Positions 18,899 to 44,824 are shown, counted from the first letter of the stretch. The stretch is 64,000 nt of DNA from Oscillospiraceae bacterium (GCA_015066625.1 SVOC01000012.1:3123-67122); one strand, 5' to 3'. Numbers and translations are program-made. Notes: generated by a model not told the origin, from the letters alone.

Positions 18899-19798
18899 AT
18901 GGACAGATATCTTATTATCAACGCAGACGATTTCGGTATGTGCAGAGGTGCAAACCTTGCGGTTATGGACCTTATGAAAGACCCGGGCAGTGCGCTTACC
19001 TCAACAACGGTTATGACCCCCTGTGCCTGGGCACCCGAGGCCTGCCAATTTGCGGCTCAGAATCCTGAGCTTGCAATCGGCGTGCACCTTACATTCACAA
19101 GCGAATGGTCAAAGTACCGCTGGGCACCCGTAAACTCAAAGAACACGGATTCACTCCGTGACGAAGAAGGCTTTATGTGGCACGAAAGCGACCAGGTTGA
19201 ACAGAACGTTGACATTGACGAGGTTGAAGGCGAAATCAGAGCACAGATTGAGCGCTGCAAGAAGCTGGGGCTTGTTACCCCCTCACATCTCGACAACCAT
19301 ATGGGCTCACTTTACGGTATTGAAACAGGCCGCTTCGAGCTTCTTCAGAAAACACTTGAGCTTGCAGGCGAATACGGTCTGCCCTTCCGTCTGCCCGGCC
19401 ACATCACAGACGAAATGATGGGCAACTCAATGCTTGAAATCAATGTTGACAAGAGCATGATTGAAATGGTGTTCGGCAAGATTGTTGAATTTGCAAACGC
19501 TATGGGTGTTGCAATCCCCGATTACCTTATCCCCAACGAATGGGGCGGTCCTCAGGACGAAAGCTACGAGAACTTCAGAGAATATCTCTATGACCTCTAT
19601 GCAAACTTCCCCGAAGGCATAACCGAAACCTACCTGCATCCGTCGCTTGAAACCGATGACCTTAAGGGCACATCAGGCTGCTGGAATCGCAGAGTATGGG
19701 AATACAAGGTTATGAAAGACCCTGCAACAAAGCAGCACATTGAGGCTCACGGCATCAAGCTTATCAACTACCGTGACCTTGCGGCGATGAAGAAATAA
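18899..19798 (+). CDS. ChbG/YdjC/HpnK family carbohydrate deacetylase
   Basis: LIINADDFGM N-terminal motif and HLDNHM motif. AGGAGAA RBS. Confidence 0.85.
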   Translation: MDRYLIINADDFGMCRGANLAVMDLMKDPGSALTSTTVMTPCAWAPEACQFAAQNPELAIGVHLTFTSEWSKYRWAPVNSKNTDSLRDEEGFMWHESDQVEQNVDIDEVEGEIRAQIERCKKLGLVTPSHLDNHMGSLYGIETGRFELLQKTLELAGEYGLPFRLPGHITDEMMGNSMLEINVDKSMIEMVFGKIVEFANAMGVAIPDYLIPNEWGGPQDESYENFREYLYDLYANFPEGITETYLHPSLETDDLKGTSGCWNRRVWEYKVMKDPATKQHIEAHGIKLINYRDLAAMKK

Positions 19799-19883
19799 AA
19801 TCAAATGGCTTGCACAGGTACAGTTGCCTATGCAAGCCATTCTTACTTATATTTGTTTCTCACTTATTGAGGCAGTCCTCACA

Positions 19884-20726
19884 TTACTTAAACGCTACAT
19901 ATCTGTAAGTCGTGCCCAGGTCATTAAGTGACGGATAACAGTTTGAATAACCCTCGGTGGTTGAGCTTTTCACCTTGAAGCCCGAGCTTGTGATTTCAAG
20001 ACCCATTGTTGCACCGTCGTTGAAACCTACCGCACAGTATAAACTGCTTTTACCGGTTTTGGTATCTGTTATCATTAAGGGCATGCCGTTAATCATAACG
20101 ATAACAACACTTGGATTGAACCCCAGATTTATTGACATTGTACCGTTACCCATTCCGAAATACGAACCCGTGACAAAGGGAGTATCAAGAAAATCCTTCT
20201 GAGAAGGCGAAATGTGAATATCCTCATTACGGATGTGTGTGCCGCAAAGCAAATCCTTTGTCAGGAATGAGGGGAAATCAAGGCTCGATGTTGCCGCAGG
20301 GCAGAGGGATGCGTTTACCGTTGCCCACGCCGCAAGCACAAAGGCATCCGTATCTCTGTCGGATACAACGGATTCACAGCCTGAATTGAGAATATCAAGC
20401 CCCGAAGCGAAGGTCATGCAGTCAATGATATCCGTAAACGCACTGTGGCAAGCCTCGCCGCCCCACGAATAGGGAGCGTGAATTGAAAGCCTGAGCCGGA
20501 TTCTTGCCTGCCTGCAATATTCGTTTTCAACAAGCACGCCTTCATCGTTTTCCGTAAAGGAATCAACAATTTCCATTCCTTCAATACCTACCGCAACGGT
20601 GGTGTGCTTCAGAGGAATCGCCTTTTTCACCGCAGGGAATTCCGTAAGAAATCTTATTTCGGAAAGCTCCTCTCTCGTTTTAAGCCAGTCAACGATATTT
20701 GCGGGCAATGCACTTATTTCACTCAT
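19884..20726 (-). CDS. Phage neck/tail-joining-like protein with an extra C-terminal beta-rich domain (hypothetical)
   Basis: Last gene of the module. The N-terminal ~150 aa has the layout of small head-tail joining proteins; this is a positional and pattern inference only. The C-terminal ~120 aa is not recognised. Confidence 0.35.
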   Translation of the reverse strand: MSEISALPANIVDWLKTREELSEIRFLTEFPAVKKAIPLKHTTVAVGIEGMEIVDSFTENDEGVLVENEYCRQARIRLRLSIHAPYSWGGEACHSAFTDIIDCMTFASGLDILNSGCESVVSDRDTDAFVLAAWATVNASLCPAATSSLDFPSFLTKDLLCGTHIRNEDIHISPSQKDFLDTPFVTGSYFGMGNGTMSINLGFNPSVVIVMINGMPLMITDTKTGKSSLYCAVGFNDGATMGLEITSSGFKVKSSTTEGYSNCYPSLNDLGTTYRYVAFK

Positions 20727-20736
20727 AAATCACACC

Positions 20737-21069
20737 TCATTCCGTTTCAACCATAACACGGATAATCGCCCATATGTAAAACGGATTTTCGCCGTTATAA
20801 ACCTTTTCGGCACGGTCAATTCTGTATTTTTCGCCAAGACAATAAATGTATGAACCATCTGCTGCGGCGGTCAGGTCAGGGTCGGGAGGCCCTATATAAA
20901 GATAATGACCCTGTGAATTATAACCGATTTCCGTGTTGACACCGTAAAGGTACATCTTATTCTTGTATCTCAGAGGGCTGATAAAAGCCCTTGTTTCAAC
21001 TTTTTCGCCGTCTTTTGTTACAAAGGCCGCAGGTCTGCCGTAATGCCTGAAAACAGGTTCAATATTCAT
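20737..21069 (-). CDS. Putative head-closure / head-tail adaptor protein
   Basis: 110 aa. Called from position and size after the connector gene. Overlaps the upstream gene by 4 nt. Confidence 0.45.
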   Translation of the reverse strand: MNIEPVFRHYGRPAAFVTKDGEKVETRAFISPLRYKNKMYLYGVNTEIGYNSQGHYLYIGPPDPDLTAAADGSYIYCLGEKYRIDRAEKVYNGENPFYIWAIIRVMVETE

Positions 21070-21431
21070 ACGCTCACCTGCCCGAAGAAAAATCCGTCAT
21101 CTTTAAGCAGTGGCAGTGCCGCAAGCATTGCCGCCGCTTTTTCTTTTTCCGCCTGCTCAATGAGTGCATTGGGCGAAACGCTGACGGTTACGTCGCCTGC
21201 CTTGAAGGAGGTCATACCCTCTGCGGAATGCATATTCTTAATGCAAAGGCGGTGGTTAACCATTGCCGCCGCAAGGTTTATGAGCCTGACATCGGAATGC
21301 TCCGCCGAGGCTTTCACACGGGGCATAAGCTCCCTTGCCGCCGCAGTGCAGAGAGGAGCAAGCTCCTCATCCGTACCTTGGGGTGAATAATATTCCTTCA
21401 GAGCAGAAAGAATGCTCAGACAGTCAATCAA
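21066..21431 (-). CDS. Putative gp6-like head-tail connector protein
   Basis: 121 aa, helical, immediately downstream of the major capsid gene. Confidence 0.45.
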   Translation of the reverse strand: MIDCLSILSALKEYYSPQGTDEELAPLCTAAARELMPRVKASAEHSDVRLINLAAAMVNHRLCIKNMHSAEGMTSFKAGDVTVSVSPNALIEQAEKEKAAAMLAALPLLKDDGFFFGQVSV

Positions 21432-21445
21432 ATCAAATCCCTCCG

Positions 21446-22450
21446 TTAAACGGAAAGCACCTTTGATGCACCGTCAAAAATCTTTGCGAAGCCTGCGGTG
21501 CAGCTGATAACCGCACGCTCAAGCTGACGGTCAATGAGCTTATCATATTCCGTCATAATATCGCCTGCCTTCACCATTTCAAGTGCGGCAGTCTTATCGA
21601 TACCGATAAGCTTACCCTCACCTACGGAAGCGGATTTGAGAAGCTTTGCGCCCAGAGGCGTAATCATATCGCCGCTGCCGTGGAAGTTAAGACCTGCCGC
21701 CGCATCCCTGAACTGCTCCATATTAAGCATCTGTGCGGTAACTGCAGGGTCGGCAATGATTGTGTTAAGCTCATAGGGGTCAAAGCCGTTCCAGAAGTTT
21801 ACGAGGTCGGCATAAGTGAGCGTACCCGACTGTGCACAGCTCACAACCTCTGCCGCATTGCCGCTGCCGTCGCCGTTTTCAATAACACCGATTGCATCCT
21901 TGAGAAGAGTTCTTGCAATGTATGCACCGATCTGTCTGAGAGTTACGGTGAAAAGGTCAAGACGCTGAAAACGGATTGCCTCATATGAAGCGACAAGGCT
22001 TCTGCCTCTCTTTTTAAGGCTTACAAGGTTATCCTTGGTGTGAACCGTGGTTTCGGGAATGAACGCACCCTCCTTCACAACCTTGAGCTCCTTTTCATCC
22101 TCTGTGGGAATCGAAGTGATTGAACGGTAATCCATACCGTCGATAACCGTTGTTGAAGCAACGATATCCGAAAGAATATCTGCCTGTTCAAGGCCCTGTC
22201 TTACGGCTCTTGAAATGTATTCGGGGAAAAGCACCGCACTGTCGGAATTCTTGAAGAACTTGTCAACAACGTCACTTGAAGATCCGCCTACCTTGATACC
22301 GAAGCGTTTGAGCTGGCGCTGATATGCGTCAAGACCTTCCATTGAAGTGCCCTTATAGTTTTCGGTGGGGTCAATGCTTTCAAGCGCCTTTGTGAAGTTG
22401 CCCGATGCATAAAGACCCTTTTCAAGTCTGATATTATCAAAATTAGCCAT
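21446..22450 (-). CDS. Phage major capsid protein (HK97-fold type inferred)
   Basis: 334 aa. Position is after the protease and decoration genes, and size and composition are typical of major capsid proteins. Confidence 0.7.
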   Translation of the reverse strand: MANFDNIRLEKGLYASGNFTKALESIDPTENYKGTSMEGLDAYQRQLKRFGIKVGGSSSDVVDKFFKNSDSAVLFPEYISRAVRQGLEQADILSDIVASTTVIDGMDYRSITSIPTEDEKELKVVKEGAFIPETTVHTKDNLVSLKKRGRSLVASYEAIRFQRLDLFTVTLRQIGAYIARTLLKDAIGVIENGDGSGNAAEVVSCAQSGTLTYADLVNFWNGFDPYELNTIIADPAVTAQMLNMEQFRDAAAGLNFHGSGDMITPLGAKLLKSASVGEGKLIGIDKTAALEMVKAGDIMTEYDKLIDRQLERAVISCTAGFAKIFDGASKVLSV

Positions 22451-22462
22451 TTTAATTCCTCC

Positions 22463-22798
22463 TTACATAATAAATGTTACGGTTGAATTTGCTTCGTTAA
22501 CCGCAACAACAAGGTATTCTCTGCCCTCGGCACCGCTCTTTACGCCTTCACCGCCGCAGACAAGATTTGCAAAGCCTGCTTCCACCGAGCCGCTGAGCTT
22601 TGCAGTCACCGCACCGCTGAGCTGTACGCTTGCATAGCCGCCGCTGCATTCGTTTGCGATACCGCAGAAGGCTTCACCGTCGGCACAGGCGGTAACGGTG
22701 CCTGAACCGTTCATTTTTACGGGTGTGCCCTTTGCAATTTCTTCGTTTGCCTTAAAAGTTGCGGTATTTTCGTTAAAACCGCAGAATGATACTGACAT
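22463..22798 (-). CDS. Putative capsid decoration/cement protein (DUF2190-like)
   Basis: 111 aa, Gly/Ala-rich beta protein located between the protease and the capsid gene. Confidence 0.45.
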   Translation of the reverse strand: MSVSFCGFNENTATFKANEEIAKGTPVKMNGSGTVTACADGEAFCGIANECSGGYASVQLSGAVTAKLSGSVEAGFANLVCGGEGVKSGAEGREYLVVAVNEANSTVTFIM

Positions 22799-22823
22799 AA
22801 TTTATCCTCCTTAAAGTTTCACT

Positions 22824-23684
22824 TTATATTTTGTAGACGGAATTTTCGCCGTCATTTCTGATTTCGCCGCCCTCAAGCTGTCTTATGACGGGCAGGCTTT
22901 TCTGTGCATTTTCTCTGAATGCATTATGCATTTCACGCAGGGATTTAAGTGAAAGGGATTTGCAGATTTCTTCAATCGCCTCGCCCTTCATTTCGGGAAT
23001 AACCCTTGCGGCGCAGCGGATGATACCGTCTTCAAGCTCCTGCCTTATTTCCTTTGCAATTTCTGCAAGGTCTTCACTTTCCCGTGAGGGGTCGAAGCTT
23101 TTGACGATACCCGCATTCTTCTGTGCAGGCACCGCAACAAAGGACCATTCGTAGGCATCCGCAGGGTCGTTAAGAAGGTAACAGCAGAGCTTTCCGCCGT
23201 AAACCTTACCCTTTCTGTGCTCACAGCCCTGTGTTTTGATGTCCTTGCCGCAGATTGAACATTTTATTTCCTTGACACTGCAGCCGACGCTGGTTTCTTT
23301 CTTGATACCTGCATCGATTTCCGCAATAAGATCCTTATTCTTTTCGGTTCTCACCGTATATGCCTTGGCAAGGATATATGTATACACCTCACCGTCGGCA
23401 GTCTTACGGGTTTCATCCGTCATAACCTCTGCCGCATAAATTCTTGCCGTCTGGTCCTTGCTTTTCATATTGTGGTCAAAGATACCTGTTTTGCCCACAA
23501 AAAGCTCTGCCAGCTTATGAAGTGACTCAACAGTGAATTTCTCATTATCCCTGTCAATTTCGTTATCGCAGAGAATAAGCGAAAATGTATAAAGCTCATC
23601 CCTGCTCAGTTTCTTTCTTGCAAACCGTCCGATAAGCTCAAGCTCTTCATCGGGCAGAATGTTATTTTCCTTTTCCGTTTTCAT
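22824..23684 (-). CDS. Putative prohead protease / scaffold protein
   Basis: 286 aa. Follows the portal gene with a 4-nt overlap. Has an HK97-protease-like N-terminal region (GIFDHN, ETSVGCS) and an acidic helical C-terminus. Confidence 0.55.
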   Translation of the reverse strand: MKTEKENNILPDEELELIGRFARKKLSRDELYTFSLILCDNEIDRDNEKFTVESLHKLAELFVGKTGIFDHNMKSKDQTARIYAAEVMTDETRKTADGEVYTYILAKAYTVRTEKNKDLIAEIDAGIKKETSVGCSVKEIKCSICGKDIKTQGCEHRKGKVYGGKLCCYLLNDPADAYEWSFVAVPAQKNAGIVKSFDPSRESEDLAEIAKEIRQELEDGIIRCAARVIPEMKGEAIEEICKSLSLKSLREMHNAFRENAQKSLPVIRQLEGGEIRNDGENSVYKI

Positions 23685-24811
23685 TCACCTCTCCTTATTT
23701 TTTCCGCCTGAGCTCTGTAAAGCTCGGCTCTGCTCAGCTCAACCTCATCCTGCAGGGTGATTTCATCCCACACAACTCTTGCCGTGCAGGAATAGCCTCT
23801 GCTTCTGAGATAAGCGGTGCAGATTTTTCTGATTACCGGCGTAAGAATACGTCTGTATGCTTCAAGCTCGCTTGTAAGCACATCCGCCTGCTGTGAGCTC
23901 ATACGCTCCGTGCTTGACCAGGAAAGCCCCAGCATAAAGGGAGGCAGACCCGTTTTTGCAACAATCTGTTCAAGCATCTGTCTTACAGGCACATTGCTGT
24001 CCAGAATCTGATTATCCGCACCGATAACCTTAATCTGCACATCGCCAACCGCCACAAAATCCCTGACCTCGGAGCCGCTCTGCATCGCCTCGCCCCATTC
24101 CCTTGCAACCTGCATCGCTCTGTCTTTTGCATAAGCTCTGTCCATTGCATCGTTTTTGGGGTTATAGGTAACGGCAAACCTCAGGTTGCCCACTCTCTCC
24201 CAGTTTGCGCCGATGCTCTCAAATATTTTGAGCAGAATTGAGCTGACAAAGGGCAGTCCTTTGAGCATCGAACAGCCCGTCAGTGCGCCGGGCTCGGGAT
24301 TAAGCACGCTGAGAAGGCACATTTCGGGTCGTGTAACCTTCTGAAGTTCTGTGCCGTTACGGACGTAAACATCAACATCAAAGCCGTTTTTATTTCTTTT
24401 AAGCTCAATGCAGTCAAGAGGTGCGTTGAAAAGACCTCTGGGCACACCGTCGGAATCCGTAACGATTTCGCCCAGTGCGGTGCCGCAGGTCAGAAGCTGC
24501 TCAAAATAGCTTTCGATAAACGCACTCATTCCCTGACGGTTGCCGCCTACAGGCACGGAAAGAATAAACTCTTCAAGCTCAGCCTGAGCCGCCTTACTGT
24601 CACATTCAACCGTAAAGCCGCCCGTAAGACGCACAAGCTTGAACACCGCCGCATCAATAACGGGCACCGCCTCGCGAAGTGCGTAATAAAGCTTATTCTG
24701 AGGTGCGGCAAGGGGCACATAGCCGTCAAGAATACCAAAGGGCTTTGAATGAGTATGCTGTGTTACGGGTGCCGAAACTCTTGATGCTTTTCTCTTTCTG
24801 AATACAGCCAT
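23681..24811 (-). CDS. Phage portal protein
   Basis: 376 aa when started at ATG 24811 (AAAGGAGAAG RBS). Lies immediately downstream of terL. Confidence 0.7.
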   Translation of the reverse strand: MAVFRKRKASRVSAPVTQHTHSKPFGILDGYVPLAAPQNKLYYALREAVPVIDAAVFKLVRLTGGFTVECDSKAAQAELEEFILSVPVGGNRQGMSAFIESYFEQLLTCGTALGEIVTDSDGVPRGLFNAPLDCIELKRNKNGFDVDVYVRNGTELQKVTRPEMCLLSVLNPEPGALTGCSMLKGLPFVSSILLKIFESIGANWERVGNLRFAVTYNPKNDAMDRAYAKDRAMQVAREWGEAMQSGSEVRDFVAVGDVQIKVIGADNQILDSNVPVRQMLEQIVAKTGLPPFMLGLSWSSTERMSSQQADVLTSELEAYRRILTPVIRKICTAYLRSRGYSCTARVVWDEITLQDEVELSRAELYRAQAEKIRRGE

Positions 24812-24834
24812 TTTCTTCTCCTTTCTGTGAAAAA

Positions 24835-24900
24835 TATAATCGGTCATAGGCGGAGCCTATCCTCAACTATTCACTTTTCACTATTCATTTTTCACCTATC
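24835..24900. repeat. Repeat unit copy A: hairpin core plus four 7-nt TTCAC repeats
   Basis: Fills the terL-portal gap. The core TCGGTCATAGGCGGAGCCTATCC (24840-24862) is the reverse complement of 39824-39846 with 22/23 identity. TTCAC/TTCAT repeats start at 24870, 24877, 24884 and 24891. Confidence 0.85.
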
Positions 24901-26161
24901 GTCTTTTTGCCGCAATGGCGAAAAATCCGCCGTCATCCTCTTCCGTAAGCACGGTTGAAACGAAATAACGGATATCGTCCATTGCGTGGTCGTTTTCTTT
25001 TCTGACGGAATCCTTTGCGCTGCTTTCCTCCCAGCGGTAAAGCCCGAATTCACGGATTGTATCTTTACATGAGGGAGAAAAAAGAATTTTTCTTTCTTTG
25101 AGGCAGTCCGATACACGGCGGATTCCGTCAATAACATCGTTTCTTGCAGGTATGACCCTGAATCTGCCGCCCCGCCTTATGCATTCCATAAAGCTTGCCG
25201 CAGACGGGTCAACGATAACGGCTTCAACGGGCAGATTTTCCGCAAGCTCACACAAGGCTTCATAATGCTCGCTGTCGGTTTTCTGCCTGCCCTCGGTGCG
25301 GGAATTGAAATAATACTCCCTGATTCTGTACCACCTGCCGCCGTTTTCGCCCCACAGGCCGAAAGAAGAAGGGTTGACCGTACCGTAATCGCAGGAAATG
25401 TAGTATCTGCCGAAGGTGTCGGGCGGCTGAACAACATGGTTTTCCTGCGAAAACATAGGGTAAACACTGCCCTGAGCCGCTACCCATCTGCCGAGAACGA
25501 ATCTTTCGTAGAATGCACCCGAATAAAGCTTTTCGTACCTTCTGATGACCGCAGGTGTCAGTGACGGATTATCGCTCATTGCAAAGTGCAGATAAAAGCA
25601 GTTTTTCTCCTCACGCTTTTTTATCCACTCCTCGTGAAACCAGTGCATAGGGTGCTCGGGGTTGCAGTTGAACCAGAATTTTGACCCCTCTACCGAACAC
25701 CTTGCAAGTGCCTGCTCCACGAAGGAACGGGGCATCAGGGTAACCTCATCAAAAAGCACTCCCGCAAGGGTCATACCCTGAATGAGCGCTGCCGAGCCCT
25801 CATCCTTGCCGCCGAAAAGGTAAAATCTGTTGGTGACACCTTTAAAGGTGATTTCCACAAGATTTCTGGAATACTTTTCCTCACATTCAAAGCCAAGCTC
25901 ACGTAGCACAGGCAGCATAACCGTCACAACATTGCGGCGCAGGGATGCGATTGTTTTGCCGCAAAGGGCAAAGGAACGGTCCGAAAATTCCGAAAAAGCC
26001 CAGGTGACAAACGAAACGGACATACACATTGTTTTTCCCGAGCGCACCGCACCGTCACAGATTATTGCGTCACGGTCCGCATAGGGGCTTTGGGGAAGCC
26101 ACCAGCAGAGAGCTTTCATCTGTTTTTGAGAAAAGGGTGTGAAATCCTGTTTTTTGCTCAC
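24896..26161 (-). CDS. terL: Phage terminase large subunit (PBSX-like)
   Basis: Walker A GAVRSGKT, Walker B VLFDEV, and nuclease-domain acidic motifs (ISCDYG, VIVDPSAASF, DHAMDDIRY). Confidence 0.9.
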   Translation of the reverse strand: MSKKQDFTPFSQKQMKALCWWLPQSPYADRDAIICDGAVRSGKTMCMSVSFVTWAFSEFSDRSFALCGKTIASLRRNVVTVMLPVLRELGFECEEKYSRNLVEITFKGVTNRFYLFGGKDEGSAALIQGMTLAGVLFDEVTLMPRSFVEQALARCSVEGSKFWFNCNPEHPMHWFHEEWIKKREEKNCFYLHFAMSDNPSLTPAVIRRYEKLYSGAFYERFVLGRWVAAQGSVYPMFSQENHVVQPPDTFGRYYISCDYGTVNPSSFGLWGENGGRWYRIREYYFNSRTEGRQKTDSEHYEALCELAENLPVEAVIVDPSAASFMECIRRGGRFRVIPARNDVIDGIRRVSDCLKERKILFSPSCKDTIREFGLYRWEESSAKDSVRKENDHAMDDIRYFVSTVLTEEDDGGFFAIAAKRR

Positions 26162-26637
26162 TCCTCATCCTCCCGTGAAAGCATTTTTGCGCCCTCGGCA
26201 AGTGCCTGCACAAAACTGCTTTGCGTGTTTTCTTCTCCCGTGCCCAGCTTTTCAAGCCGTTCAAGGGCTTTGAGTCTGTCAAAAAATTTGATTTCAAGAC
26301 CTCCGCCCTTGGGCCGTTTGATATCCGATACATTGAAAAGGTCCAGCTTTTCGATTTCTTCCGCAGACATGGTTTCTTCGCAAAGCATAAGCTTCAGCGC
26401 ATCTGCAACGGAACCGAAGGCAAGGCGGCACAGACCCTTTTCAACTGCCGCCGCAGTGGCTTTCTTCTCTTTTTCGAGCCGCGAAATCTCATTGCGGATT
26501 TCTTCTCTGGCAAGAAGCCTTGCGGCGCTTCTTCGGGGCGCAACAACAAAGCCTGCCCTTGCGGCACAGCCTCTCGCATCGCCGTCTTCGGCATAATAAG
26601 AACAGAAAAGCCGTTCTTTGTCGGTCATGGCATTCAT
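26158..26637 (-). CDS. terS: Phage terminase small subunit
   Basis: TDKERLFCSYYAEDGDARGCAARAGF HTH-like N-terminus typical of small terminases. Overlaps terL by 4 nt. The start may be the second ATG at 26628. Confidence 0.8.
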   Translation of the reverse strand: MNAMTDKERLFCSYYAEDGDARGCAARAGFVVAPRRSAARLLAREEIRNEISRLEKEKKATAAAVEKGLCRLAFGSVADALKLMLCEETMSAEEIEKLDLFNVSDIKRPKGGGLEIKFFDRLKALERLEKLGTGEENTQSSFVQALAEGAKMLSREDEE

Positions 26638-26844
26638 CTCCTTTCCGAAAGGGATTGCTCATAATCCCCTTCAACCTAAGCGCAAACTGCCGCTTTTTTT
26701 GACCCGTTCAGGTGAAAAAATCCGAAAATTCATTTCGCATCACCGTGCGAATTCTCCCGTTTTCGCCCGTATTCACCCATATATCGCCGTTTTTCTCTGT
26801 TTTTGCACAATATTTTTATCTTTTGAATTTTTTTGCATTTTTGC

Positions 26845-27065
26845 TTGACTTATTGCGACTTTGGGTATAAGATTAACAGGTAGAAAAAATTTTTTGAAGT
26901 GTGGTGAAAATCATGGCAGGTTCCGATATACCCAACCCCCGAAGTAGATACATAACCTTATATTTTGCCGCACAGTCGGAGCTGCGCCCAAAGTGATTTT
27001 GCCTTGAATCGCTTTTCTTCGGTTGCATCCCCTTTGCGGTAAGCCGCGAAAGGAGATGCTTTTTT
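26845..27065 (+). promoter_or_regulatory. mgtE promoter and ~190-nt structured leader with a terminator/RBS-sequestering hairpin (possible Mg2+ riboswitch)
   Basis: TTGACT at 26845 with TATAAGAT 15-17 nt downstream. Hairpin GCATCCCCTTTGCGG-taa-GCCGCGAAAGGAGATGC (27025-27059) contains the AAAGGAG RBS and is followed by T6 and then the ATG. I could not confirm M-box identity by eye. Confidence 0.5.
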
Positions 27066-28421
27066 ATGGAAAATTTTGAAATCCTTCTTGAACAGATAAT
27101 TGAGCTTGCAGAAAAGGGCGAAATTTCCGCACTGCGTGAAATGCTCAGTGAAATCAACGTTGTTGACGTTGCTCTGCTTATCGAGGAGCTTGAAACCAAA
27201 AACAGACTCAGAACCTTCCGTGTTCTGCCCAAGGATATATCTGCGGAGGTTTTCTCATACCTTGAATCCGAAACCCAGGCGGAGCTTGTGCGCTCAATCA
27301 CGGATGCCGAACTTGAACGTCTGCTCGATGAAATGTTCCTTGATGATACGGTTGACTTTCTTGAAGAAGTGCCTGCAAGCGTTGTAACCCGTGTTCTTGC
27401 ACATTCGGACCCCGAAACACGAAAGCTGATTAACCGTTTCCTCAAATATCCCGAGGACTGCGCAGGCAGCCTTATGACCATCGAAATGGTTCACCTTCGC
27501 ACAACTCTCACAGCGGCTGAGGCTATCGATAAAATAAGAAAAACAGGCGTAGACAAAGAAACCGTCTACACCTGCTATTGCATTGATCGTGAGCATCATC
27601 TTCTGGGAAGCATCCCCCTGCTTTCGCTTCTGCTTTGCGAGCAGGATACCCTCGTGGGCGATATTATGGAGGACGATGCACAGCTTATTTCCGTCAACAC
27701 TCACGACGACCGTGAGTATGTTGCGGATATAGTTAAAAAGTACGACCTTCTCAGCGTACCCGTTGTTGACAACGAAAACCGCCTTGTAGGCATTATCACC
27801 GTTGACGATATCGTTGACGTTATTGAAGAAGAAACCACCGAAGACTTTGAGAAGATGGCTTTGCTTGCCCCTTCGGATGACGAATATCTGAAAACAGGTG
27901 TTTTCAAGCTTGCCAAAAACAGAATTTTATGGCTTCTCATCCTTATGATTTCGGGCACCTTCACGGGCAAAATCATTGAGGGCTACGAAACCCTGCTTGC
28001 AGGCTTTGTTGCACTGACAGCCTCGATGCCTATGCTTATGGGTACGGGCGGTAACGCAGGCAGCCAGGTATCAACCCTTATCATCCGCGGTCTTGCGGTT
28101 GGCGAAATTGAAATAAGCGATTACCTTAAAATCGTTTTCAAGGAACTGAGGGTTGCTTCAATCTGCGGCGCGGTGCTTGCGGCGGCAAACATACTGAGAA
28201 TGTATCTTTTCAGCGAAGGCACGTTTCAGGTATTCCTTGTTGTTTCAATCGCAATGTTCTGCGCAATCGTTGTGGCAAAGCTTATCGGCTGTTCACTGCC
28301 TATTTTCGCTAAAATCATCAAGCTTGACCCTGCACTTATGGCAGGTCCCATGATTGCGACTCTGGTTGACATCGTTACTCTTGCTATCTATTTCGGACTT
28401 GCAAAACTCTTTTTAATATAA
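27066..28421 (+). CDS. mgtE: Magnesium transporter MgtE
   Basis: N-domain, tandem CBS domains and a C-terminal 5-TM domain with GNAGSQ and PMIATLVD motifs. Confidence 0.95.
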   Translation: MENFEILLEQIIELAEKGEISALREMLSEINVVDVALLIEELETKNRLRTFRVLPKDISAEVFSYLESETQAELVRSITDAELERLLDEMFLDDTVDFLEEVPASVVTRVLAHSDPETRKLINRFLKYPEDCAGSLMTIEMVHLRTTLTAAEAIDKIRKTGVDKETVYTCYCIDREHHLLGSIPLLSLLLCEQDTLVGDIMEDDAQLISVNTHDDREYVADIVKKYDLLSVPVVDNENRLVGIITVDDIVDVIEEETTEDFEKMALLAPSDDEYLKTGVFKLAKNRILWLLILMISGTFTGKIIEGYETLLAGFVALTASMPMLMGTGGNAGSQVSTLIIRGLAVGEIEISDYLKIVFKELRVASICGAVLAAANILRMYLFSEGTFQVFLVVSIAMFCAIVVAKLIGCSLPIFAKIIKLDPALMAGPMIATLVDIVTLAIYFGLAKLFLI

Positions 28422-28487: not shown

Positions 28488-28578
28488 ATAAACGGATAAA
28501 ATATACTTCAAAAACGGAATGTAAACCCGACTTTACACTGTTTTTTACAGATTTTTGCCAAATGTCCACCAAAGTTGG

Positions 28579-28607
28579 TTGATTAAACCGTCGTTCGGGG
28601 CTATAAT
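28579..28607 (+). promoter_or_regulatory. Sigma-A-type promoter (proximal)
   Basis: TTGATT-N17-TATAAT, 25 nt upstream of the 28633 start. Confidence 0.65.
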
Positions 28608-28632
28608 TCGGGCAAGGAGGACGAAAACAACT

Positions 28633-30225
28633 ATGAATATATCCGAGAAAATACTAAAACTGAGAAAAGAAAAGGGATTGTCGCAGGAAGCCTTTGCAGA
28701 AAAGCTGGGCGTATCAAGACAGTCCGTTTCGAAATGGGAATCAAGCGGGGCTTTGCCCGATATAGATAAAATCATTGCAATGAGTGAGCTTTTCGGCGTT
28801 TCCACAGATTACCTTTTAAAGGATGAGCTGCCCGAATCGGAAGAAGCACCGGTACCCGAAAATGAAGAAGAAATTGAAGCCGTTGAGGTTGAACCTGCCG
28901 AAACGCCCGTTGAAAACGTTTCCGAACCCAAGTCCAGAAACAAGTGGATGAAAACAGCCGCAATAATCCTTGTTATTGCCATTGCATTTACCGCAATAGC
29001 GGTGCCCACCTATTTCGGCGGAATAAAAAATATGTGGTATGAGGCAAACGGCGGCAAGCTGAGCTACCCTTATGTGCTTGTTCACGGTCTGGGCGGCTGG
29101 GGCGAGGGCAACAGCATCAACGATATGGCTCAGTATTGGGGCGGCGGAAGCTCCGACCTGAAAAAGGTGCTGGAGGCAGAAGGGTACGAGGTATATACTC
29201 CCGGTGTCGGCCCCGTTTCAAGCGCCTGGGACAGAGCCTGCGAGCTTTATGCACAGCTTGCGGGTACACGGGTTGACTACGGCGAAGCCCATTCAAAAGA
29301 GCACAACCACAACCGATACGGCAGAACCTATACCGAGCCCCTTATTGCAAACTGGGGCATGAAAATGAACGGCGGTCAGACCGTCAAAATAAACCTTGTG
29401 GGCCATTCCTTCGGCGGTGCAACAGTAAGACTTCTCACCTCTCTGCTTGAATACGGCAGTGAAGCGGAAATGCAGGCAGGCGGAGAAGATACCTCGCCTC
29501 TTTTCACAGGCGGCAAGGGCAATTATGTTCACTCCGTAACCGCACTGTGTGCACCTCACAACGGCTCATCTCTTACCGAGGTGCTCAACACCGTGGGCAG
29601 CACTCTTGGCGTTACAAACACAACAGATATGCTTATGACTCTCTGCTTCGGAGTTGCAGGCATTGCGGCACCGGTTGAAGGCATTTACGATTTCCGTCTT
29701 GACCACTTCGGCATTGATAAAATAGACCCAAAAAGCGCCATTGCGGCAGTTACCGCATCGGGTAATGACCATGCCGCATACGACCTTTCGCCCGACGGTG
29801 CGGCAGAGCTTAACAAAGAAATAAAAACCGTTGAAGGTGTTTATTATTTTTCATACGCTTACAGCACAACCCAGCAGGGCAAAATCCTCGGCAGGCAGGT
29901 GCCTCTGACCTCAACTCTGCCCATACTTTCACCTTTTGCGCTGGCAATGGGTCAATACAAGGGCACAACCGCAGGCGGAATAGAAATTGATGAATCCTGG
30001 CAGGAAAATGACGGCCTTGTGAACGTTGTTTCCGCAAGATATCCCGCAGGCGAGGAATATATGTCACTGCCCGAAAGCCCCGAAGATATCAGCCGCGGCA
30101 TATGGAACGTTGCACCCAAACGCACAGGCGACCACGGCACGGTTATCGGTCTTAACGCCAAAGCAGGCAAGACGAAGGAATTTTATATTGAGCTGTTCAC
30201 TATGATTGACAGCCTTGAAAGGTAG
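28633..30225 (+). CDS. XRE-HTH / transmembrane / alpha-beta-hydrolase lipase fusion protein
   Basis: Start at ATG 28633 (AAGGAGG RBS). HTH_3 region (LRKEKGLSQEAFAEKLGVSRQSVSKWESSG), acidic linker and one TM helix. The lipase-like domain has the VLVHGLGGWGEG oxyanion region and the GHSFGG nucleophile elbow. Confidence 0.8.
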   Translation: MNISEKILKLRKEKGLSQEAFAEKLGVSRQSVSKWESSGALPDIDKIIAMSELFGVSTDYLLKDELPESEEAPVPENEEEIEAVEVEPAETPVENVSEPKSRNKWMKTAAIILVIAIAFTAIAVPTYFGGIKNMWYEANGGKLSYPYVLVHGLGGWGEGNSINDMAQYWGGGSSDLKKVLEAEGYEVYTPGVGPVSSAWDRACELYAQLAGTRVDYGEAHSKEHNHNRYGRTYTEPLIANWGMKMNGGQTVKINLVGHSFGGATVRLLTSLLEYGSEAEMQAGGEDTSPLFTGGKGNYVHSVTALCAPHNGSSLTEVLNTVGSTLGVTNTTDMLMTLCFGVAGIAAPVEGIYDFRLDHFGIDKIDPKSAIAAVTASGNDHAAYDLSPDGAAELNKEIKTVEGVYYFSYAYSTTQQGKILGRQVPLTSTLPILSPFALAMGQYKGTTAGGIEIDESWQENDGLVNVVSARYPAGEEYMSLPESPEDISRGIWNVAPKRTGDHGTVIGLNAKAGKTKEFYIELFTMIDSLER

Positions 30226-43822: not shown

Positions 43823-44824
43823 TTATTCATTTTCAAAAACTTCGCCGTTGTTAACCTCTTCTATTTCCTGAGAGGTATATATTTTAAGGTAGGTTCTGTC
43901 TTCTGCATCCCAAACATTAACGGCAACATCGTGGCTGCCCATCTTTGTTCCGTCCTGAAAAGCTCCGGTACGGTCGGTCACAAATTCTGCTCCCGTATAT
44001 TCAAACCAATACCATTCCGATTTCATATCACCGTCGAAGAATTTTTCGCCCAGATATCTGTAATTGTATTCCTTGGTAAGCAAATTAATATATTCATCAA
44101 CAAGAGCCTTTGTTTCTGCCGATTCCACACCGTTATCTAACGTATAAAGATATGTAATTTCTTCGCCTTTATTCTTTTTCTCACGGGAATCAACACCTGC
44201 AAAATCCGAAAAGCTTGGTATTACCGCACCTGTTCTGTTAACGGCAGGAACGTCATCGGATGAATCTGAAAAAAGAGTTACCATTGCCAGAGCAACAACC
44301 ATAACAGCTAATGCTTTGCCGAGAAACTTTAAGATTTTTCGAAGTTTCTTCAAAAATCTGAACATCAAAAGACTCGTACGGTGCCTTTTGCCGTTACGAA
44401 CATCTTCCGTCAGTGAATCTATCAGTTTCTGCTCATAGTTTTTACTGTCGTCTATTCTTTGGGTAGAACCCGTCATAATTTCAATATCTATGGGAATATC
44501 AAAATTTTTAATTTTCAAAGCGTGTACGGGTATATTATGTGCTATGGCAAAGCTGAGTTCGTTTTTGACATATACCGATTTAACAGACGCAGGCGATAAC
44601 AGAACAACACACGCTGATGATTTGAACAAACGGTCTGCAATAACCCTGTTCCAATCGTCACCCGAATGCAAGCCCTTATCGTACCAATAACGGATACCGA
44701 AGTTTTCAAACAGACTTTTTATATCTTTCATTGCCTGTTCGTCTTCGTGAGCATAGCTTATGAAGACATAAGGTTCATTGCCCTCATATATGCCTTTGCC
44801 GTTATACTGATTGCCTTTTTTCAT
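43823..44824 (-). CDS. TIR-domain protein with a central TM helix and an unknown C-terminal domain
   Basis: TIR_2-like N-terminus (PYVFISYAHEDE, WYDKGLHSGDDW, CVVLLSPASVKSVYVKNELSFA), a TM helix (ALAVMVVALAMVTLF), and about 150 aa C-terminal region. Confidence 0.75.
   Translation of the reverse strand: MKKGNQYNGKGIYEGNEPYVFISYAHEDEQAMKDIKSLFENFGIRYWYDKGLHSGDDWNRVIADRLFKSSACVVLLSPASVKSVYVKNELSFAIAHNIPVHALKIKNFDIPIDIEIMTGSTQRIDDSKNYEQKLIDSLTEDVRNGKRHRTSLLMFRFLKKLRKILKFLGKALAVMVVALAMVTLFSDSSDDVPAVNRTGAVIPSFSDFAGVDSREKKNKGEEITYLYTLDNGVESAETKALVDEYINLLTKEYNYRYLGEKFFDGDMKSEWYWFEYTGAEFVTDRTGAFQDGTKMGSHDVAVNVWDAEDRTYLKIYTSQEIEEVNNGEVFENE

Follow-up and report, generated by a model that had tools for sequence, protein, structure and literature searches.

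A chromosomally fixed operon of phage head and neck genes in an uncultured Acutalibacteraceae bacterium as candidate source of tail-less, gene transfer agent-like particles

What keeps a set of phage head genes in place on a bacterial chromosome when no gene for a tail, for lysis, for integration or for replication accompanies it? This question is raised by a stretch of 64,000 nucleotides (nt) deposited as Oscillospiraceae bacterium (GCA_015066625.1, SVOC01000012.1:3123-67122; the window in the following, with positions counted from its first letter), within which nine minus-strand open reading frames (ORFs), named g1 to g9 from terS onwards, are packed head to tail at positions 19884-26637 between host genes, exactly where the initial annotation of the window had placed them. 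Judged by profile searches in Pfam, PHROGs and NCBIfam, four of the products can be regarded as securely identified, namely the terminase subunits TerS (g1) and TerL (g2), the portal (g3) and the major capsid protein (g6), and these assignments, proposed from the sequence alone, were thereby borne out. The locus is best read as the domesticated and fixed head-and-neck operon of a phage, residing in an uncultured gut bacterium of the Acutalibacteraceae (Oscillospirales), and with a probability of about one half it represents a vertically inherited, gene transfer agent (GTA)-like maker of tail-less, DNA-filled capsids which are crowned by fibre-tip domains. Capsids with 4-10 kb of packaged host DNA were recently reported as common among gut Oscillospirales, for which the gene cluster of Faecalibacterium is the only one so far identified (PMC12946183). 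The module adds a second, unrelated and far more reduced candidate to it, with carriers in at least 69 species of a family which abounds in the guts of ruminants and humans.

Conservation of the module and the genes missing around it

With each GTDB species represented by a single genome, a scan gave 80 loci, every one of them from metagenome-assembled genomes (MAGs), which are labelled as Acutalibacteraceae, Oscillospiraceae, Ruminococcaceae, Clostridiales or Clostridia and stem from ruminant, horse, rabbit and other sources; next to these, 23 metagenome contigs encode, in the same setting, a capsid protein identical to that of the window. All nine genes locate to the junction of mgtE and ydjC in about 47 Acutalibacteraceae species, across which the capsid protein is 81-99% identical, as is the mgtE product (81-99%), with 57-96% identity for the PASTA kinase encoded nearby, and the mean identity of the module tracks that of its flanks (Spearman 0.95, n=30). 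The same nine genes were found at another host site in a second clade (capsid protein 64-73% identical), where the neighbours include an MscS channel, a DapA-family aldolase, DivIVA, TrmB, a thiamine pyrophosphokinase and a HAD hydrolase. Median ratios of non-synonymous to synonymous substitution rates (dN/dS, Nei-Gojobori) range from 0.08 to 0.30 for the module genes and from 0.055 to 0.21 for the host neighbours, at dS near 1 and thus close to saturation. Selection is strongest on TerL, the capsid protein, the portal and TerS, while g5, which is missing in some relatives, evolves fastest. In 43-48 orthologous copies per gene no genuine internal stop was found; an apparent portal pseudogene in 10 species was rejected, as the supposed stops lie upstream of the true start (MGIFK). 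The module is chromosomally fixed, vertically inherited and under purifying selection.

These findings bear on the possibility that an inert prophage remnant merely hitch-hikes at a stable chromosomal site. An origin by deletion of tail genes and the lack of everything required for phage propagation would be in line with such a remnant, yet all nine frames are intact, substitution ratios are low at near-saturated dS, and another clade has kept the module at a different site, so that neither relaxed selection, nor frameshifts or stops, nor a strain-specific presence was identified. A remnant is thus considered highly improbable, in agreement with the earlier argument that intact frames speak against old decay. 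The comparison of the ChbG-mgtE junction among related genomes, which had been proposed as a check, revealed tube or baseplate genes next to the module in none of the 80 related species genomes, and selection was found not to be relaxed. The module was probably retained by the host and not as a dead virus, and it probably serves the making of particles for moving DNA. As an alternative, a function other than transfer has to be considered, i.e., interference with the assembly or packaging of related phages, a role of the fibre-tip ring as receptor decoy, or the release of DNA or capsids at the level of the community. The strong selection acting on nine genes in spite of no visible delivery device would suit this idea, as would the circulation of related tailed elements and prophages within the same bacterial order. 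It is, however, purely speculative, the module has no defence-system gene linked to it, and TerS, TerL and the portal are among its most conserved products (dN/dS 0.08-0.13), which argues for DNA packaging as the selected activity; a function of this kind is accordingly held to be rather unlikely.

The absence of a tail, lysis, integrase, repressor or replication gene and of an att-like repeat, noted at the outset, was confirmed: none of these genes was identified in the window or in about 5 kb past its high-coordinate end, the window holds no homologue of the tube or baseplate genes of tailed relatives and no tRNA gene, and no flanking direct repeat of at least 14 nt beyond chance matches was detected around the module. 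Its G+C content matches that of the surroundings without marked anomaly, and the remainder of the window together with the 5 kb beyond consists of ordinary host metabolism genes. In some species the spacer between g9 and ydjC holds insertions of 0.75-7 kb, which were considered as a hiding place for tail or lysis genes and rejected as such, as their genes, which lie on mixed strands, are those of a nitroreductase, a phosphoglucomutase and DUF proteins.

From this gene set the initial annotation had derived two comparisons, of which the one with domesticated GTA-like elements fits vertical inheritance and purifying selection, while that with capsid-forming satellites fails. In its strongest form the latter would assume an immobilised satellite, whose capsids are filled and released only upon phage infection or induction by borrowing phage tails and lysis functions, as phage-inducible chromosomal islands of the capsid-forming kind (cf-PICIs) do, with transduction, phage interference or both as the gain for the host. 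The likeness is considerable, as the gene set corresponds to the morphogenesis half of cf-PICIs such as EcCIEDL933 (terS, terL, portal, capsid, head-tail adaptor and connector, with neither tail nor holin); moreover, cf-PICIs produce tail-less, DNA-filled capsids, which are released and later join free tails, and a helper would account for the absent lysis and regulation. However, cf-PICIs are islands which move, carry an integrase, a regulator and a primase-replicase, package themselves and are completed by the tails of helpers, whereas the module possesses neither integrase nor AlpA/MerR-type regulator, primase-replicase or att repeats, and is inherited vertically at one site in about 47 species instead of showing a patchy mobile spread. 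When held against the cf-PICI definition of SatelliteFinder, the morphogenesis set is present, with the protease as a candidate only, but the left half of integrase, regulator and primase-replicase and the mobile, att-bounded and patchily distributed island are not; at most 6-7 of 11 core components can be counted where at least 9 are needed. In addition, a terminator joined to a fibre tip is encoded by the module itself. In lambda-type assembly the terminator is already part of the finished tail, and since the capsid brings its own one, docking of helper tails appears unlikely. Taken as a whole, the assumption of an immobilised satellite is regarded as rather unlikely.

The fused gene g9 and the tailed relatives of the module

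The product of g9 had been described as a neck-like protein of 280 amino acids (aa), an assignment that can now be made more specific: according to structure prediction, g9 is a fusion of a tail-terminator fold with a fibre-tip domain. The AlphaFold model, derived from the family alignment, consists of two domains connected by a low-confidence linker. Foldseek matched the N-terminal domain to PDB entries with a probability of 1.0 and E-values of 2e-5 to 5e-3, these being lambda gpU, the terminators of T1 and T5 (p142), the collars of pyocin R2 and diffocin, and the SaPI1 neck. The C-terminal domain, when modelled alone, reached a pLDDT of 90; it has no significant fold match in the PDB and matched, in BFVD, entries called 'Tail fiber protein', one DUF7483 protein and segments of phage proteins of 800-1450 aa. 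The idea of this domain being a fused copy of the tube protein was rejected (hhalign probability 0.1%). A phmmer search of 1.84 billion cluster representatives identified about 25 clusters of the full-length fusion, proteins of 140-165 aa comprising only the N-terminal and of about 155 aa comprising only the C-terminal domain, and further proteins of up to 946 aa whose C-terminus is formed by the latter.

The origin of both halves became apparent from tailed relatives of the module. Neither a single-protein scan of IMG/VR nor a megablast search of GenBank phages with the module yielded a match; when IMG/VR was scanned with an alignment, 549 relatives were identified, 80 of which were retrieved for their gene layout. 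The ancestral layout within this set comprises g1 to g8, a stand-alone terminator of 143-190 aa, a tube protein of 121 aa, a baseplate set in the order LysM protein, hub, gp25-like, J-like and I-like, and a fibre-like protein of 153-177 aa; a minority also possesses a sheath (PF04984/PF17482). The tube profile matches tail-tube proteins of the PDB including an XkdM-related protein (best E 1.7e-7). Residues 1-134 of g9 align with the stand-alone terminator of the tailed relative L096 (34% identity, 4e-22), whose homologues precede the tube gene, and the residues from 114 or 158 to 280 align with the protein encoded after the baseplate genes (L096, 35%, 7e-27; L124, 1e-13; L102, 6e-14), the N-termini of the latter proteins being similar to residues 1-40 in a family of 998-aa phage proteins. 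As the two halves of g9 match separate genes which flank the tube and baseplate genes in tailed relatives, the tail was likely lost by an ancient in-frame deletion. The simplest history would be a single event, joining the 3' end of the terminator gene to the 5' end of the fibre gene upon loss of tube and baseplate. The junction region aligns across both clades with a long g9, and the fused gene appears to have been conserved thereafter in at least 69 species (dN/dS of g9, 0.14), the remainder of the 80 species loci being made up of 5 with a short terminator and nothing after it and 6 cut by contig ends. The earlier caution that a recent deletion might have occurred was therefore right as to the deletion, but not as to its age. 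The fusion can be seen as the scar of a tail loss whose product stayed under selection.

Main rival to this reading is a tailed GTA with a split locus, in which the nine genes would constitute the head operon while a separate operon supplies tube, baseplate, fibres and lysis functions, yielding a short-tailed particle. Exactly such a two-operon layout, with the operons 125 kb apart, is found for FpGTA of Faecalibacterium prausnitzii, and RcGTA also draws on a separate locus; furthermore, the module is without lysis genes, which must be supplied from somewhere, and the terminator fold of g9 is one that normally contacts the tube. Against this stands that the fusion resembles the scar of a tube and baseplate deletion and not a relocation, that no tail gene was found within 10 kb of the module in the 80 species, tube and baseplate genes included, and that a subgroup of long-g9 relatives from the human gut (L089-L094 in IMG/VR, at about 6.5-11.5 kb in each locus) keeps lysis genes next to g9, yet is without tube or baseplate there. 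On this evidence, which for the species genomes covers 10 kb around the module, a split locus is considered improbable, though less so than the satellite and the non-transfer functions. In L089-L094 the long g9 is followed on the same strand by a sigma70-r4/XRE protein, two unknown proteins, a holin and an endolysin, and no tape measure is encoded beside it either. As these loci carry holin and endolysin, the tail-less design is coupled to lysis in at least one lineage; in that of the window, lysis functions are not linked to the module. In L089, an ArdA-like gene, identified by eye, follows the lysis genes.

Among the remaining relatives, L096, L107, L122, L132, L138, L152 and about 35 other IMG/VR loci are compact modules of 10-13 kb, comprising head, adaptor, stopper, terminator, XkdM-like tube, a full baseplate and a 155-aa fibre, but no sheath and no room for a tape measure, and for some of them the end is marked by a gene which was assigned, by eye, to the large serine recombinases. 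These compact modules may represent 'mini-tail' particles or satellites. One further relative, MT835508.1 (identical to L001), was deposited as 'Bacteriophage sp.' from Mexican faecal samples and consists of bacterial chromosome around a head-only module with a short terminator; its being a real phage was rejected, as ABC exporter and MarR genes flank the module. If it originates from DNase-treated virus-like particles, as is suspected, this entry would hint at packaged host DNA; a literature search on the MT835 accession series returned nothing relevant. Two other entries of this series, MT835769 and MT835952, are relatives with tube and hub genes. Loci of this type carry a warning, as both virus-detection pipelines and GenBank label them as phages (uncultivated viral genomes of IMG/VR; MT835508).

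A possible tail-less particle and its known counterparts

Considering the above, a course of events can be suggested in which particle assembly, the DNA packaged, the geometry of the ring, release and delivery are all what we infer. The module would descend from a PBSX-like element with a contractile tail, from which an ancient in-frame deletion removed tube and baseplate and joined the terminator gene to the post-baseplate fibre gene. The nine genes would form one transcription unit, reaching from a control region beside the mgtE promoter to a terminator past g9. A procapsid, built from portal, capsid protein, g4 and g5, would assemble on the portal and be filled with DNA by TerS and TerL in a headful manner, whereupon adaptor g7 and stopper g8 close the portal and a ring of g9 caps the neck, displaying its fibre-tip domains where a tail would otherwise be attached. 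As the element is without excision or replication genes, the packaged DNA would have to be host chromosome, as in GTAs. Release would depend on lysis functions encoded elsewhere or on autolysis, and delivery would begin with binding via the fibre-tip ring. Whether DNA can be delivered by a capsid with nothing but a neck and a ring of fibre tips is the structural question thus raised. A tentative answer, which we hold to be possible though on balance unlikely, is a self-sufficient tail-less transfer particle, in which the terminator::fibre-tip ring under the head-closure protein replaces the whole tail for adsorption: the crown would bind the cell wall of the recipient, the capsid would release its host DNA there, and the DNA would enter via the uptake machinery of the recipient. 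If this were true, living lineages would record a stepwise loss of the tail, from sheath, tube and baseplate via tube and baseplate to the terminator::fibre fusion.

Several observations weigh against tail-less GTA-like particles. TerS retains a full-length Terminase_2 domain, while the TerS of known GTAs tends to lack the DNA-binding domain (PMC12946183); because the domain is complete, site-initiated (pac) packaging into adjoining host DNA in place of random packaging is possible. Neither the 64-kb window nor, for the remaining species genomes covered, the 10 kb around the module yielded a gene for lysis, regulation or delivery. Candidate roles are what g4, g5 and g8 have been given, and a terminator that carries a C-terminal extension could still be joined by a tube from another locus. 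In a neighbour-joining tree of the capsid protein, the nearest tailed and short-g9 loci fall between the two clades with a long g9, and as the tree does not unite all long-g9 elements, a single origin of the fusion is no more than likely. Lastly, the lineage is known from MAGs and metagenome contigs alone.

Tail-less GTA-like particles gain plausibility from known systems. In common with GTAs, the module is a chromosomal cluster of phage structural and packaging genes without genes for replication, integration or lysogeny, which is vertically inherited under purifying selection across species. Closest by its behaviour is FpGTA, for which capsids of about 40 nm without visible tail, containing 8.4-8.9 kb of random host DNA, were reported; FpGTA I is a 10.5-kb head operon with some tail components, a second operon encoding baseplate, fibre and lysis functions, and GTA-type packaging of 4-10 kb was observed in several other Oscillospirales whose gene clusters are unidentified (Borodovich et al., Nat Commun 2026, PMC12946183). 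Like the module, FpGTA resides as a chromosomal head and packaging operon in gut Oscillospirales, has no integrase or replication genes and keeps tail and lysis functions outside the head operon; it is near-ubiquitous within its genus, and its particles have been seen, whereas the module is known from its genes alone. The two are set apart by their protein families, as the FpGTA capsid protein belongs to the N4-gp56 family and is encoded beside a Prp-like protease, while that of the module belongs to PF25209/phrog_3922 and its TerL to the PBSX family, a distinction drawn from the annotation of FpGTA (Supplementary Data 2) on the one side and from the NCBIfam scan of the module on the other, which yields nothing for g4 and g5. 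Moreover, the module measures 6.75 kb and ends in the terminator::fibre fusion.

With PBSX, the defective prophage and GTA-like particle of Bacillus subtilis, the module shares a PBSX-family TerL and the property of a chromosomal element that would package host DNA, and its tailed relatives possess an XkdM-like tube and a baseplate in XkdP-XkdU order; PBSX, however, keeps a contractile tail, tape measure, lysis cassette and regulators of its own, where the module is left with head and neck. RcGTA of Alphaproteobacteria resembles the module in vertical inheritance, purifying selection and the lack of replication and integration genes, and its auxiliary functions lie away from the cluster, but it possesses tail, tape measure and hub genes and a TerS without DNA-binding domain, and belongs to an unrelated lineage and host phylum. 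On these comparisons, the module is a variant of GTA-like domesticated phage particles outside any named family.

Gene assignments, control region and neighbourhood

The features of the locus are compiled in Table 1. Overlaps of 4 nt at terS/terL, portal/g4 and g7/g8 were found as initially described, while the remaining gaps measure 10-48 nt and not 12-48 nt. For TerS, gene callers predict 156 aa from a second ATG at 26628, which is probably the true start, because the ribosome-binding site GGAAAGGAG abuts the first ATG. TerL further matches phrog_2 (2e-51) and PF03237 (3e-16), and its Walker A motif GAVRSGKT was confirmed in the translation. The portal reaches 1.6e-9 and 37.9 bits with PF04860, slightly below the Pfam cutoff of 39.1, and the capsid protein has a weak NCBIfam match to HK97 (TIGR01554, 8e-5) and none to the N4-gp56 family.

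Table 1. Features of the locus, with positions in the window and median dN/dS of module genes
Feature	Positions	Strand	Basis or description	dN/dS
YdjC/ChbG-type deacetylase gene	18899-19798		host gene flanking the module at low coordinates	
Intrinsic terminator closing the operon	19803-19842	-	16-bp stem with 7 G-C pairs, then T-rich tail; 41 nt past the g9 stop	
g9, terminator::fibre fusion, 280 aa	19884-20726	-	predicted terminator fold and fibre-tip domain	0.14
g9, C-terminal part, residues ~158-280	19887-20255	-	predicted fibre-tip (DUF7483-like) beta domain	
g9, N-terminal domain, residues 1-141	20304-20726	-	tail-terminator fold (AlphaFold and Foldseek)	
g8, presumed head-closure protein/stopper, 110 aa	20737-21069	-	position only	0.14
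g7, head-tail adaptor, 121 aa	21066-21431	-	family matches and position directly after the capsid gene	0.16
g6, major capsid protein, HK97-type, Pfam Phage_capsid_4	21446-22450	-	phrog_3922 8e-98; PF25209 4.6e-17	0.10
g5, small virion protein, 111 aa	22463-22798	-	phrog_4588 'virion structural protein' 1e-17; phrog_673 'head scaffolding protein' 7e-6	0.30
g4, conserved head-module protein, 286 aa	22824-23684	-	phrog_16951 (unknown function) 1.4e-96	
g3, portal	23681-24847	-	phrog_30703 3e-131	0.12
g2, terminase large subunit TerL, PBSX family	24896-26161	-	TIGR01547 2.4e-56, 191.8 bits (curated cutoff 105)	0.08
g1, terminase small subunit TerS	26158-26637	-	PF03592 Terminase_2 6e-16, profile positions 1-127 of 141; phrog_51 6e-16	0.13
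Upstream control region	26638-26844	-	between terS start and divergent mgtE promoter	
Ribosome-binding site	26638-26646		GGAAAGGAG	
TTAGGTTGAAGGGG motif	26665-26680	-	CTTAGGTTGAAGGGGA	
GAAAACGG-type repeats	about 26750-26808	-	four GAAAAACGG-like repeats, ~10 nt apart	
Promoter-like site of mgtE	26845-26873		TTGACT-17-TAAGAT	
mgtE leader	26845-27065	+	conserved core of ~60 nt	
mgtE	27066-28421		host gene flanking the module at high coordinates, 428 nt from terS	
HTH-lipase fusion gene	28555-30225	+	XRE-type HTH and lipase-like C-terminal part	
TIR protein gene	43823-44824	-	solitary 333-aa TIR_2/ThsB_TIR protein	

Less firm are the assignments of the smaller genes. The labels 'protease/scaffold' for g4 and 'decoration-like' for g5 were established neither by profile nor by PDB searches, and PDB sequence-profile searches with g4, g5, g7, g8 and g9 gave nothing significant. 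For g4 there was no sequence match in Pfam, NCBIfam or the PDB; in its family alignment, columns of His, Ser and Cys are invariant and the C-terminal third is helical, and the invariant motifs together with gene position make a prohead protease fused to a scaffold possible. The product of g5 is a candidate scaffold or capsid-cement protein, with a capsid stabilisation protein as its sole, non-significant PDB match (E 0.17) and none in NCBIfam. The g7, g8 and g9 proteins of the window had no match at E<=0.01 in Pfam, PHROGs or NCBIfam, with a marginal PHROG match of unknown function for g9 (0.017). An adaptor was assigned to g7 because 6 of 22 members of its family match phrog_541 'head-tail adaptor' (best E 7e-5), whereas PHROG scans of the g8 family were also empty; g8 has a strongly conserved core, PLRYKNKMY, and is placed between adaptor and terminator in all relatives.

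The promoter-like site of mgtE leaves about 200 nt upstream of terS for operon control, as initially estimated. In this control region, conservation across 43 syntenic loci was found for both the four GAAAAACGG-like repeats and the TTAGGTTGAAGGGG motif. Upstream of terS, long-g9 loci contain 2.0 copies of AAACGG per 320 nt as compared to a background of 0.29, and a GTGA(G/A)(G/A)GG motif, related to TTAGGTTGAAGGGG, was found upstream of terS in other clades. Repeats and motif may be where a regulator or a dedicated sigma factor acts, and they may point to dedicated regulation in trans.

On the low-coordinate side, the deacetylase gene was correctly recognised as ChbG-type neighbour of the last module gene, its distance being 85 nt instead of 86 nt; further host genes beyond it encode GH92, FliB, the PASTA kinase and GlgB, and those on the mgtE side a helix-turn-helix (HTH)-lipase fusion and GlyRS. 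This fusion was also found near the modules L067, L073, L077 and L082, with 63-91% identity in the syntenic clade and 39% in the second clade, i.e., in two unrelated chromosomal contexts, and its position beside the head module may be coincidence or that of a linked regulator. The mgtE leader ends in a terminator hairpin which abuts the start codon and has compensatory base changes across 14 species. As the window gave no Rfam match at any position, and the terS-mgtE spacer none even at E<=1, the leader is not a recognised M-box; it may be a Mg2+-responsive attenuator missed by current M-box models. Farther away, the gene of the solitary TIR protein lies in a patch of 38% G+C as compared to about 47% for the window and looks like an acquired defence-type gene.

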